A stretch of 6,374 nt of DNA from Candidatus Heimdallarchaeota archaeon (GTDB lineage Archaea > Asgardarchaeota > Heimdallarchaeia > Heimdallarchaeales > Heimdallarchaeaceae): NCBI GenBank assembly GCA_030668875.1, contig DAOVER010000097.1:1-6374 (forward strand). The letters run 5' to 3'. The position numbers were made by a program, and so were the translations under genes. Within the stretch, counting starts at the first letter, position 1. Every line of letters starts with the position of its first letter. This document shows, in pieces, positions 1 to 5,952 of the stretch. The notes under the pieces are model-generated. The model made no database searches. It was not told the origin of the DNA and saw nothing but the letters and a program-made list of their open reading frames with translations.

Positions 1-160
1 ATAGAGCACTTGCACACTCCGCTTCCTCCTACCCCTGATCATGAACCTCATGATTCTTCCCCTCAACGCACGTGAGGGGACCCACTTAAACGACGGTCAG
101 AATGCTTCTTGCAAGTTTGACCAAGTTTCATAACGTGCGTAGTGAAATCGCTGGAACGCT
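1..160. ncRNA. Candidate structured non-coding RNA, unassigned family, probably truncated by the left window edge
   Basis: 80/160 G+C (50%, hand count) in an otherwise AT-rich window; no convincing ORF. Hairpins at 38-44/48-54 (ATCATGA/TCATGAT), 58-65/73-80 (TCCCCTCA/TGAGGGGA), 95-99/118-122 and 126-130/143-147. Loop 66-72 (ACGCACG) is complementary to loop-located 134-140 (CGTGCGT). Confidence 0.45.
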
Positions 161-1954: not shown

Positions 1955-1969
1955 TTGTCAACAAGGTTA
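1955..1969. repeat. Direct repeat copy R1 (TTGTCAACAAGGTTA), includes the stop codon of SBP copy 1
   Basis: 14/15 identical to 3946-3960, at the same offset from the stop codon. Confidence 0.8.
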
Positions 1970-3874
1970 GTTCTTTTGCTTTTTTCTAATGATTATCAGA
2001 ATAATAACAGATAAACAACTAGGTAAGAATAAGGATACTGTTTCGGTTGGACTTTCATATCCTGCTGCTTCCATCCATTTCCAAGCTAAATCTAAATCAT
2101 GATGGTAAATTATGGGGAAACTACCATAACTATAGAAATTTATCATAGGCTTATGACTTAAAAGGTATACACCATCATGAATTACTTCATTTATTTCACC
2201 ACGATCTATAGCGTAACAGATTGCTTTTCTCACTGCACAAGCTTTTGTATAATTACCAAATTCTGTTCCATTTATCCACACTGAATTGTCTGAACCACCA
2301 ATATTTTCTCTTAACATATTAAATGCTAAGAAGCTAAATCCATTGTTTAGTGTACTTTGAACTTCAAATCTTGGATCTGCTTGCATTTGCTTTCTTTCAG
2401 ATGGGAAAGAGGTTAGATCGACAATATCTAAATTACCAGCTTTGAATTCTGCTAATTCTGCTGAAATATCAGGAATAACGCGAACATTGAAGGTTTCGAT
2501 GTCTAGATCTTGCTCAGTTCCATCGATAGCACCATAACCCATCCAGTATGGACTTTTTTGTAGCACAGTTACGGAGTTCTTGATGTAGTAGTCCAACATA
2601 TATTTACCACAGCTGAATGCGGATGTAGAGTAATATATCCAAGGATCTGTATCTAGGATTCCATCATAGAAACCTGTACATTTAGCACCTCCAGAAGTGT
2701 ATGAAACTTTAGAATCAGTAGAATTCAAAAAGAACTCAGGAAGAATATACTGAGGTAAGCTTGACCAGAAGTCGGCATAATATTCATGTTCGGAGGTTAG
2801 AGGATTCCCATCAATTTCAATGTGGAATTTCAATTCATCTGCTGGGTCAACATATACTTTTGTGATCCAATTTTGATTTGATGGATTTTCAGCGACAATT
2901 GAGTTTGCCCCTGCAAGATAAGTAAAAACCGCATCTTTGCCTGTGACTTTTTGATTTGTACCATCACTAACTTCACCATTCTTCAGACCAGCCATTAGTG
3001 GAGTGGTAGCTGAGTCTAGTTGATCAGAGCTAGCACTTCTACCAGTAACATTGTATGAGGGGTTCCAATATAGGTTGTCCCTCATGGTAAACGTGTAATG
3101 GAAATCTTCAATTAGGTTCCAATCTATAACTAATGAAGTTTTTAACGGGGCCAAATCTGGACTCCAACCAACAATTGATTCAGATATTAGACTAGTCAGG
3201 AAAGAGCTGGATGTATCGTCTGTTTGCAGTGGGTTCAAATCTCTCCAATTAGCGTCAGCTATACTGAATTCAGCTAGTGATTCTTGACCTTCGTGTAGAC
3301 CATCGTATTCGATGTAAGGTAAAGAATCAACAATTCCCCAACGACCGTCATAACCGATTGTGTTCGCCCATGTAGCAACATAGTTTCTAGCGCCAAAAAG
3401 AGGTAATAATGGGAGAATATTGTCCATAAATAAAATTTGCCAATCATAATACAATTGTTGCCTTTCTCCTCCATCATATAAAGTGACCGCTTCATTCTGC
3501 ATTGTTTCACTTTCATTCTGATAAGGAATATTTTTATTCAAATGAAATAGGTTCAAATTGCCTTCTTCTGTATAATAATCTCTCATATCTGGTGTTTTAA
3601 GATCTGAGAAAGCAGATAAAGTCAAATCAAAATTAACTGTCATATAAGGTTCAAAGAAACTGATGAAATCAGCTGATTCTACTGTTACCTCAACTTCTAT
3701 TCCTATTGCTCGAAGATATTGTGCTACATATAACCCATAATCTGCACAGGTCCCTACGTTTGTTCTCAATACTAAAGTGAAGTATGGTTCAACGGTTTCT
3801 TCTCCTACTGCATTTACTATACTAAAAGTGATAATAAGATAGAATATTACAGATAGAGCAATTCTTCTTTTCAT
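1967..3874 (-). CDS. ABC transporter substrate-binding protein, family 5 (OppA/DppA/NikA-like), circularly permuted, C-terminally anchored; copy 1
   Basis: 635 aa. Signal peptide MKRRIALSVIFYLIITFSIVNA; family-5 motifs DLNP, YTFTMRDNLYW, GKYML...LQKSPYW, VRVIPD..AELAEFKAGNLDI, FLAFN, VRKAICYAIDR, AWKWMEAAGY, YLRAIGIEVEV, ERQQLY..WQILFMD..PLLPL; C-terminal hydrophobic stretch + RKKQKN. Confidence 0.92.
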   Translation of the reverse strand: MKRRIALSVIFYLIITFSIVNAVGEETVEPYFTLVLRTNVGTCADYGLYVAQYLRAIGIEVEVTVESADFISFFEPYMTVNFDLTLSAFSDLKTPDMRDYYTEEGNLNLFHLNKNIPYQNESETMQNEAVTLYDGGERQQLYYDWQILFMDNILPLLPLFGARNYVATWANTIGYDGRWGIVDSLPYIEYDGLHEGQESLAEFSIADANWRDLNPLQTDDTSSSFLTSLISESIVGWSPDLAPLKTSLVIDWNLIEDFHYTFTMRDNLYWNPSYNVTGRSASSDQLDSATTPLMAGLKNGEVSDGTNQKVTGKDAVFTYLAGANSIVAENPSNQNWITKVYVDPADELKFHIEIDGNPLTSEHEYYADFWSSLPQYILPEFFLNSTDSKVSYTSGGAKCTGFYDGILDTDPWIYYSTSAFSCGKYMLDYYIKNSVTVLQKSPYWMGYGAIDGTEQDLDIETFNVRVIPDISAELAEFKAGNLDIVDLTSFPSERKQMQADPRFEVQSTLNNGFSFLAFNMLRENIGGSDNSVWINGTEFGNYTKACAVRKAICYAIDRGEINEVIHDGVYLLSHKPMINFYSYGSFPIIYHHDLDLAWKWMEAAGYESPTETVSLFLPSCLSVIILIIIRKKQKN

Positions 3875-3876
3875 AT

Positions 3877-3933
3877 GATCACATGAAATTTATTACTAAA
3901 TTGTTCGCTAAAACACTTATTAATTTTACTTAC
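3877..3933 (-). promoter_or_regulatory. Putative promoter of SBP copy 1 (BRE-like, TATA-like, SD-like)
   Basis: Minus strand: GTAAGTAAAA (3933-3924), then TTAATAAG (3923-3916); GTGAT a few nt before ATG 3874. Homologous to the region upstream of copy 2. Confidence 0.55.
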
Positions 3934-3945
3934 AATAGATATTAC

Positions 3946-3960
3946 TTGACAACAAGGTTA
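3946..3960. repeat. Direct repeat copy R2 (TTGACAACAAGGTTA) at the junction of the two SBP units
   Basis: 14/15 identical to both R1 and R3; contains the CTTG-N4-CAAG dyad (3945-3956). Confidence 0.85.
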
Positions 3961-5880
3961 TTTCATTTGTCTTTTTCTAAAGATTATTAGAATTATTAGA
4001 GATAAACAGCTTGGCAAGAATAATGACACTAATTTTACTGGTCTTTTATATCCTGCATATTCCATCCATTTCCAAGCTAAATCTAAATCGTAATCGTAAA
4101 TTATGGGAAAAGCAGGTTCATAATAAAAGAAATTAAAATTTCGCATAGGTCTATGATTTATAAGATATTCACCATCATGAAGTACCTGATTCATTTCAAC
4201 TCGGTCTATTGCATAACAAATTGCCTTTCTTACTGCACATGCTTTTGTGTAATTCCCTGATTCGGTTCCATTTACCCACACTAGATTATCTGAACCACCA
4301 ATATTTTCTTTTTTCATATTAAATGCTAAGAAGCTGAATCCATAGTTTAGTGTACTTTGAACTTCAAATCTTGCGTCAGCTTGCATACTTTTTCTTTCTT
4401 GAGGGAATGGAGCTAAGTTCACAAGATCTAATCTACCAGCTTTAAATTCTGCTAATTCTGCTGAAATATCAGGAATAACGCGAACATTTAAGGTTTCAAT
4501 ATCTAAATCTTGTTCAGTTCCGTCAATGGCACCAATACCCATCCAATACGGACTGGCTTGGAGAACTGTAACTGAGTTTCTGAGATAGTAGTCCAACATA
4601 TATTTACCACAGCCGAATGCGGAAGTACTGTAGTATACCCAAGGAGCTGTGTCTAAGATTCCATTATAGAAACCTGTACATTCAACACCACTAGAAGTGT
4701 ATGAAACTTCAGTGCTAGAGGAATTCAAGAAGAATTCAGGAAGAATGTATTTGTGTAGACTTACCCAAAATTCAGCATAATATTCAAGTTCTGGGGTTAG
4801 AGGGTCCCCATCAATTTCAATGTGGAATGTCAAATCATCTGCTTGGTCAACATAGATATTTGAAATCCAGTTATTATAAGATGGATTTTCACTAACGATA
4901 GGGTTTCCCCAAGCAAGATATGTAAAAACTGCATCTTTTGCCGTAACCTGTTGATTTATACCATTACTAACTTCCCCGTTCTTCAATCCGGTTAGAAGTA
5001 GATTGATGGTTGGGTCAAGAGGGTCAGAACTAGCATTTCTGCCAGTAATGTTGAATGAGGGGTTCCAATATAAATTATCCCTCATGGTAAATGCGTAGTG
5101 GGATTCGTCTATTTGTTTCCAATCTGAAACCAATGAAGTTTTGAGTGGAGCTAAATCAGGACTCCAACCAACAATTGGTTCAGCTATTAAGCTATACATA
5201 AAAGAACTGGATGTATCGTCTGTTGTCAGCAAGTTCAAATCTCTCCAATTCGCATCAGCTACATTGAATGCTGTTAGCGATTCTTGACCTTCATGTAAAC
5301 CATCAAACTCCATATATGGTAAAGAATCAGCTAAATCCCATCTTGAATCAAATCCCAATGTATTAGCCCATGTTGCCAAATACTGTCTAGAGCTGAAAAG
5401 GGGTAATAAAGGAAGAATTTGATCCATGAACAAAATTTGCCAATCATAATACAATTGCTGTCTCTCTTCCAAATCATCCGAAGTAATTGCTTCATTTTGC
5501 ATAGCTTCACTTTCATTTTGATATGGAATACTTCTATTTAGATTAAATATATTCAATTTACCGTTTTCGGTATAGTAGTCTCTCATATCTTGGCTTTGAA
5601 GATCAGAGAAACTCGCCATATAAAAATCAAATTGCGGATTATAGTTAGGATCAACAACTACCATAGGAAAAGACCATTCTTGGACTTTTACTTCTAATTC
5701 TATTCCTATCTCTCTAAGATATTGAGCTATGAAAAGACCATAATCCGGATAAACTCCTCCTCCTGTTGTTCTTATTACTAAATTGAAAAAAGGTTCAACA
5801 GTATCTTCACCAGCTACATTTATCACACTAAAAGTGAGAATTAGATAGAAAACTACAGAGATAGCTATTTTTCTTCTCAT
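3958..5880 (-). CDS. ABC transporter substrate-binding protein, family 5, circularly permuted, C-terminally anchored; copy 2
   Basis: Collinear paralog of copy 1 (roughly 70% aa identity by eye). Start set at ATG 5880 (MRRKIAISVVFYLIL, matches the copy 1 N-terminus, GGTGA at 5889-5885), giving 640 aa. Confidence 0.92.
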   Translation of the reverse strand: MRRKIAISVVFYLILTFSVINVAGEDTVEPFFNLVIRTTGGGVYPDYGLFIAQYLREIGIELEVKVQEWSFPMVVVDPNYNPQFDFYMASFSDLQSQDMRDYYTENGKLNIFNLNRSIPYQNESEAMQNEAITSDDLEERQQLYYDWQILFMDQILPLLPLFSSRQYLATWANTLGFDSRWDLADSLPYMEFDGLHEGQESLTAFNVADANWRDLNLLTTDDTSSSFMYSLIAEPIVGWSPDLAPLKTSLVSDWKQIDESHYAFTMRDNLYWNPSFNITGRNASSDPLDPTINLLLTGLKNGEVSNGINQQVTAKDAVFTYLAWGNPIVSENPSYNNWISNIYVDQADDLTFHIEIDGDPLTPELEYYAEFWVSLHKYILPEFFLNSSSTEVSYTSSGVECTGFYNGILDTAPWVYYSTSAFGCGKYMLDYYLRNSVTVLQASPYWMGIGAIDGTEQDLDIETLNVRVIPDISAELAEFKAGRLDLVNLAPFPQERKSMQADARFEVQSTLNYGFSFLAFNMKKENIGGSDNLVWVNGTESGNYTKACAVRKAICYAIDRVEMNQVLHDGEYLINHRPMRNFNFFYYEPAFPIIYDYDLDLAWKWMEYAGYKRPVKLVSLFLPSCLSLIILIIFRKRQMK

Positions 5881-5884
5881 TAGT

Positions 5885-5940
5885 TCACCAAGGGATTTGT
5901 CACCAAATATTACGCTCAAACACCTATAAACTTTTCTTAC
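5885..5940 (-). promoter_or_regulatory. Putative promoter of SBP copy 2 (BRE-like, TATA, SD)
   Basis: Minus strand: GTAAGAAAAG (5940-5931), TTTATAGG (5930-5923), GGTGA (5889-5885). Spacing matches copy 1. Confidence 0.6.
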
Positions 5941-5952
5941 AATGGATATCAC

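Follow-up and report, generated by a model that had tools for sequence, protein, structure and literature searches.

The window, by which we mean the whole stretch of 6,374 nucleotides analysed here, is the start of contig C28 in a Candidatus Heimdallarchaeota genome of 3.2 Mb, 99 contigs and 34% GC. Positions 1967-5952 hold two tandem genes for family-5 solute-binding proteins (635 and 664 aa), and between 343 and 1793 lie three small minus-strand ORFs, one of them with a weak match to DUF3467. The first 140 nucleotides (Table 1) are a repeat: an own-genome search retrieved 26 copies of this right end, many of them at contig ends, the closest being C26:1-141 with 100% identity and copies on C5, C83 and C29 with 97-99%. 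A preliminary description had recorded a GC-rich island without a good ORF at this place, and both observations hold, as positions 1-100 have 54% GC compared to 34% genome-wide, no ORF of at least 40 aa overlaps 1-160 and no frame is open across this segment. The start of the contig within a multi-copy repeat explains the assembly break at this point. In four metagenome runs on marine sediment from the source study, the Logan contigs likewise all stop within the repeat. Summed over contigs, depth across 61-150 reaches about 100 times the value in the unique flank, and many different continuations are found at 138-143. Extending the contig leftwards, a check proposed in the preliminary description, failed: no Logan contig piece carries the locus left beyond position 114, and of the window copy the right end alone is assembled.

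Table 1. Features of the transposon right end at the start of the window, in window positions
Feature	Position	Strand	Basis
Gene-less type A mini-IS607 element, right-hand 140 nt of ~400 nt	1-140	+	Contig begins inside the repeat; identity to copies on C26, C5, C83 and C29
Hairpin AUCAUGA-ACC-UCAUGAU, specific to gene-less elements	38-54 (38-44/48-54)	+	98% of cells pair (21 related elements), almost no variation; in the MFE fold
86-nt right-end module, also present in autonomous IS607-type elements; putative 3' part of a TnpB omega/reRNA scaffold	55-140	+	Adjoins the tnpB 3' end; covariance model
Hairpin H1, loop 66-72 provides one pseudoknot strand	59-65/73-79	+	98.4% of cells pair; stem nearly invariant
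Pseudoknot, 5' strand (H1 loop)	67-72	+	Pairs with 134-139
Hairpin H2: outer stem 88-91/125-128, inner stem 95-101/116-122, variable tip	88-128	+	Covariation
Two direct CAAGTTT repeats, probable TnpA sites, overlapping H2	112-118, 122-128	+	Similar inverted pair in left ends
Pseudoknot, 3' strand, directly before the boundary/predicted guide	134-139	+	Pairs with 67-72
Terminal GT, probable crossover dinucleotide and right boundary	139-140	+	Flank divergence; ACC-GT left junction; single GT in the empty site
Predicted guide segment of the window copy (unique flank)	141-160	+	Position only, by analogy with TnpB reRNAs (PMC10711439)

Among the internal copies, three forms can be distinguished: a gene-less type A of ~400 nt, represented by the window copy and, in full length, by C29:51575-51973 and C83:33626-34024 (399 nt in common), a type B that has ~300 nt in common with type A at ~80% identity, and an element of ~2.4 kb (C48, C87, C37) whose similarity to the window is limited to the last 86 nt (55-140). 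The gene-less derivative contains no ORF, is present in several copies, resembles the autonomous element at both ends, including the left end (ACCGTAAAC...CCAATCTTGCC), and has an empty site in a relative. The 2.4-kb element codes for a TnpA of 196 aa, which combines a MerR-type helix-turn-helix with a serine recombinase (Pfam MerR, Resolvase) and matches the NCBIfam model NF033518 (IS607 family transposase) with 163.8 bits at a cutoff of 110, and downstream of it for a TnpB-like protein of 638 aa, ~240 aa longer than a typical TnpB. The sole Pfam match of this protein is the Cas12f1-like TNB zinc ribbon. A PDB search with its structure model (built with 24 homologues, pLDDT 86.4) gave Cas12f, TnpB or other Cas12 structures for every one of the best 50 matches, among them the TnpB-reRNA complex of the IS607 element ISFba1 (8iaz), and database homologues of the protein carry the names Heimdallarchaeota or Heimdallarchaeaceae. 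D436 and E535 are invariant, and the position of the RuvC-III aspartate is occupied by a nearly invariant histidine, H620 (motif NTHxNAAxNI). Because of this replacement of the canonical aspartate, it is uncertain whether the TnpB-like protein cleaves. TnpB branches with a rearranged RuvC-III and branches linked to serine recombinases have been catalogued, some of them archaeal (Altae-Tran et al., PMC10691335).

The 86-nt module is closely associated with this gene, as the TnpB C-terminus lies directly upstream of it in 47 of the 104 collected copies. In the autonomous element L009 (G000:C48), a tnpB-like ORF at 3081-4997 is followed 3 nt after its stop and on the same strand by the module at 5001-5086, and in most other autonomous copies the tnpB ORF ends inside hairpin H1, with the stop at or near positions corresponding to 74-76 in the 3' arm.

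Every copy ends with ...CAUAACGUGCGU, and the sequences diverge after window position 140. The right end reads GC-GT and the left junction ACC-GT. Using a strict regular expression (two looser ones returned mostly noise), we counted ACCGT in 46 distinct left junctions, ACTGT in five and ACAGT in two, and the bases around this motif, eight before and three after, are variable. One clean empty site is present in a relative (L098, G021:C177), where the sequence flanking the C83 copy on the left runs straight into that flanking the C29 copy on the right: GCTACAACTGT is directly followed by CTCTTATGAC, with AACTGT before the junction and the flank homologies abutting. Based on this site, the element is a discrete insertion and the ACYGT motif already existed in the target before insertion. 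Since one GT in the empty site corresponds to two in the filled site, one per junction, GT is likely the crossover dinucleotide, and the insertion pattern in this one empty site is consistent with an IS607 crossover at a short identical dinucleotide. The same empty site together with the junction conservation makes ACCGT at the left junction the likely TAM. Joined to one another, the left flank of C29 and the right flank of C83 look like a single gene that is uninterrupted in another relative (G016:C66). The cross-contiguous flanks in the two relatives imply that the C29 and C83 copies (96% identical) swapped flanks, which reflects either inter-copy recombination or a chimeric assembly join.

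Besides the boundary, the ends contain motifs that may serve the recombinase. The left ends hold an inverted pair (AATCTT..AATCTTGCC) similar to the two direct CAAGTTT repeats of the right end, and these repeats are probable binding sites of the serine-recombinase TnpA. In a 95-nt mini-element (G000:C88:71839-71930, minus strand), only 51 nt of the left end and, joined to them, the final 44 nt of the right end remain. This copy may mark the minimal ends needed for mobilisation, and as it is devoid of H1, the pseudoknot described below cannot form in it.

To describe the RNA structure of the right end, we aligned 80 distinct copies over window positions 53-140 and counted pairs on a specified structure. 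The hairpin with a 7-nt loop reported in the preliminary description is present (H1). The complementarity of this loop to 134-140 is exact in the window, lies far beyond chance and is backed by covariation: with seven pairs scored, 93% of cells pair, and five pairs change on both sides (CG/UA/UG/AU, GC/AU/GU, CG/UA/UG, AU/UA and GC/AU), giving compensatory variants such as ACACACG/CGUGUGU, AUGCACG/CGUGCAU, ACGUACG/CGUACGU and ACGCUCG/CGAGCGU. However, the outermost pair 66/140 is formed in just 50 of the 80 copies, so that the helix comprises 6 bp (67-72/134-139). The preliminary description had placed 134-140 in the loop of a further hairpin (126-130/143-147) and considered a kissing-loop contact, but this hairpin spans the element boundary 140/141, and with flank bases that differ in every copy it is a chance pairing. 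As the sequence after 140 differs from copy to copy, 134-140 is a 3' tail and not a loop, and the interaction is therefore an H-type pseudoknot rather than a kissing loop.

Hairpin H2 lies between the two pseudoknot strands. Four pairs of its inner stem vary on both sides, with 97% of cells paired, and a G·U pair at 100/117, which the opposite strand would read as a C·A mismatch, is found in 44 of the 80 copies. Over the whole structure, ten pairs change on both sides, none of 500 shuffles reaches any of the observed measures, and in a slid control with partners shifted by 1-3 columns the pairing drops from 97% to 18-42%. On the plus strand, G·U cells outnumber A·C cells by 80 to 23 (36 to 21 without the fixed wobble pair), and the stability of the fold relative to shuffles is z = -3.6 for the plus strand and z = -0.66 for the minus strand. 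The excess of G·U and the fold stability indicate that the RNA strand is the plus strand, i.e. the tnpB strand; for the pseudoknot alone, nine G·U versus six A·C cells leave the strand undecided. In a few copies (L117-L123, L127 and L128 of a second genus, g10, and L026 of the genus of the window), an extra small hairpin (e.g. GGGUGAAACCC) is inserted between H1 and H2. It shows compensatory variants of its own, and such insertions are typical of modular RNA.

Two further pairings of the preliminary description fared less well in a comparison of 21 related elements. Only 66% of cells pair in the proposed helix 8-14/110-116, with 10/114 and 14/110 mostly mismatched, and bases 110-116 largely coincide with the first of the two CAAGTTT repeats. 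A GNRA-capped hairpin on the minus strand (20-3) keeps a conserved 4-bp GGAG/CUCC core, but the remainder is not conserved. A candidate 5-bp helix between 11-15 and positions -18 to -14, outside the window, has one covarying pair and clashes with the GGAG/CUCC hairpin. In the last 300 nt of the autonomous elements, no covarying helices besides H1, the pseudoknot and H2 were found, and many of the single-column “covariations” upstream of the module are third-codon transitions.

The complete gene-less copies extend this picture beyond the window. A conserved TATA-like motif TTTATATA (L011:863-870, in G000:C29) is followed ~25 nt downstream by an AGUGCU stem (L011:892-897) and then by a 5' domain of ~110 nt with the strongly covarying helices CUUGGUUC/GAACCAAG and GCAGGUG/CACCUGU. 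A distance of ~25 nt fits the TATA-to-start spacing in archaea. This arrangement suggests that the TATA-like motif is an archaeal promoter and that the element may specify a self-promoted scaffold of ~250 nt, of which the window would contain the last 140 nt. We detected no counterpart of the 5' domain in autonomous elements and no tblastn similarity of the inner part to the TnpB C-terminus; in consequence, gene-less and autonomous forms may not make equivalent scaffolds. Segments of 30-60 nt around the TATA-like motif (CTTTTTCTACGRGTTTATATAGGAAAGTGC) also recur without the rest of the element on the G000 contigs C11, C44, C84, C85, C19, C43, C3 and C39, and these sites may belong to other element families with the same promoter segment.

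A covariance model of the module (R1) identified it in 20 of the 23 genomes of the genus and in both genomes of a second genus of the family, and gave no match in the four other family genomes or in 52 genomes of other families of the class. Among the 82 class genomes searched, the IS607/TnpB lineage is restricted to these two Heimdallarchaeaceae genera. A second tnpB family (L129:473-2582, G000:C95) codes for a protein of 646 aa with 38-39% identity to the first, and its module at 2365-2449 has the same H1/pseudoknot/H2 layout in different letters: a CUCCUC/GAGGAG hairpin carries the loop CGCAUAC, whose pairing partner GUAUGCG follows 64 nt further on, and the hairpin between the pseudoknot strands is formed by AAGC/GCUU together with CUAAGCAC/GUGUUUAG. 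About 60 nt beyond this module, a tRNA-Cys gene is located on the opposite strand.

Neither the window nor the complete elements match an Rfam family at gathering thresholds, including the models for group I and II introns, RAGATH-18, RNase P and SRP, and permissive searches (E<=10 on 1-400, E<=1 on four complete elements) returned only noise such as mir-374, STnc170 and snoR110. A group II intron, RNase P, SRP and an IS110 bridge RNA were rejected on the basis of the gene context and the lack of model matches.

In contrast, there is a good match to a class of RNAs described for transposons of the same family. IS607 reRNAs of ~150 nt extend beyond the right end and consist of three stem-loops and a pseudoknot, in which ~5 nt next to the guide pair with a stem-loop apex; this pseudoknot is required for the activity of ISXfa1 from Xylella fastidiosa, which uses a GG crossover and a GGG TAM, and a guide-adjacent pseudoknot is conserved in IS200/605 TnpBs and Fanzor2 (Yoon et al., PMC10711439). 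Like the reRNAs of ISXfa1 and ISFba1 (PDB 8iaz), the module is encoded on the tnpB strand, where it overlaps with the gene end and reaches as far as the right end of a serine-recombinase transposon, and it shares with them the stem-loops, the pseudoknot between a loop and the guide-adjacent segment and a guide derived from the flank, which is predicted here. A conserved left-junction motif is also common to ISXfa1 (GGG with GG) and our elements (ACCGT with a probable GT). Unlike these two systems, the lineage described here resides in an Asgard host, has a partner protein of 638 aa compared to ~400 aa with His in place of the RuvC-III Asp, and is without an Rfam match. In the omega RNA of ISDra2 TnpB (PDB 8h1j; cited in PMC10711439), a guide-adjacent pseudoknot is likewise central to the scaffold, and the two proteins have related folds (PDB match rank 25), whereas this IS200/605 scaffold ends exactly at the boundary, the first flank base already being guide, and has no sequence similarity to ours.

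For the gene-less form, the closest parallel is found in the PATEs, gene-less relatives of IS200/605 elements that often encode omega RNAs, which are used in trans by the TnpB of other elements (Meers et al., bioRxiv 10.1101/2023.03.14.532601). Both are protein-less and multi-copy, keep both ends together with a guide-RNA scaffold, and would depend on TnpA and TnpB supplied from elsewhere. In contrast to the bacterial PATEs with their Y1 transposase and single-strand “peel-and-paste” mechanism, the elements described here derive from a serine-recombinase IS607 transposon of an archaeon and appear to carry their own archaeal TATA promoter and an extra 5' domain. The bridge and seek RNAs of IS110/IS1111 are also structured ncRNAs that come from a transposon end and have loops complementary to the junctions; however, they are located upstream of a DEDD recombinase gene and base-pair with the DNA of target and donor, whereas the partners here are a serine-type TnpA and TnpB and the loop pairs with the 3' tail of the element itself.

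Taken together, window positions 1-140 are the right end of a non-autonomous, gene-less IS607-family derivative in a Heimdallarchaeaceae genome, and this end probably represents the 3' module of a TnpB guide-RNA scaffold (H1, H2 and pseudoknot), with the guide starting at 141. The reading builds on the directly established repeat family, boundary, tnpB association, covariation, strand bias and single empty site. From these we infer transcription, TnpB binding and guide use, as well as the TAM and the promoter mentioned above. Transcription would run past the boundary at 140, and the adjoining unique DNA (141 to ~160) would become the guide. TnpB from full-length copies would load the gene-less RNA in trans, and upon excision, recognition of the re-formed site, with ACCGT next to the flank, would favour retention of the element.

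The same features could also be explained on the level of DNA, with the hairpin and inverted motifs acting as TnpA binding sites of a transposon end that has no functional RNA. The CAAGTTT repeats (112-128) with their inverted left-end counterparts and the 95-nt mini-element, in which the right end is reduced to its terminal 44 nt, would fit such an end; in addition, a compensatory change in an inverted repeat could in principle stem from a DNA-binding dimer, and the wobble counts of the pseudoknot are not strand-decisive. Yet H1 and its loop lie outside the retained 44 nt and are nevertheless the most conserved part in gene-less copies, which are free of coding constraint. Together with the tolerance of H2 for G·U far above A·C, including the fixed G·U pair, the better-than-shuffled fold of the plus strand alone and the layout that matches published reRNAs, this makes a pure DNA function unlikely.

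Conversely, the structure may belong to a mobile-element RNA unrelated to TnpB guidance, for instance an IStron-like self-splicing intron, a ribozyme or a regulator of neighbouring genes. The covarying 5' domain of ~110 nt without an autonomous counterpart could be taken in this direction, and some IS607 elements are known to serve as group I introns as well; however, the intron and RAGATH-18 models remain without a match even at E up to 1-10, and the module is tied to the tnpB 3' end in the 47 copies as well as in the paralogous family, so that we regard such an RNA as highly unlikely. The preliminary description had named the end of a CDS outside the window as an observation that would speak against a structured RNA. 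This is partly what we found, because tnpB of full-length elements does end inside the 59-79 hairpin, but the window copy is gene-less: positions 1-54 match type A with 97-100% identity and not the tnpB 3' end, tblastn with TnpB revealed no similarity in the window contig or in type A and B elements, and, as stated above, 1-160 lacks an open frame. It is thus extremely improbable that tnpB continues past the contig start and that the conservation reflects coding.

With the guide-RNA scaffold as the preferred reading, the earlier assignment to an undescribed archaeal ncRNA or a mobile-element RNA is half right: it is a mobile-element RNA and its key pseudoknot is real, but the class is already described, which removes a candidate for a new archaeal ncRNA. 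What is added to the known class is an Asgard lineage, a large TnpB with a RuvC-III His variant and a gene-less form with a predicted promoter. The gain is that the guide-RNA end of an IS607/TnpB lineage now has a structure supported by covariation, which should be of some use for studies on the evolution of TnpB, Fanzor and Cas12 and for the annotation of Asgard genomes; the known working of TnpB systems is unchanged by this finding. A more far-reaching proposal, which we consider distinctly unlikely, would be that the gene-less elements are mobile guide-RNA genes that drive their own transcription and have, through the 5' domain, a separate function, that the His-variant TnpB binds rather than cuts, and that the dozens of dispersed copies act as a network for RNA-guided retention or regulation in an Asgard archaeon.

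Beyond the boundary, the flank of the window copy contains a T-rich run (CTTTTTCTTTTTTTCTTT) at 181-197, 41-57 nt past the boundary. It is specific to this flank and could end read-through transcripts in an archaeon.
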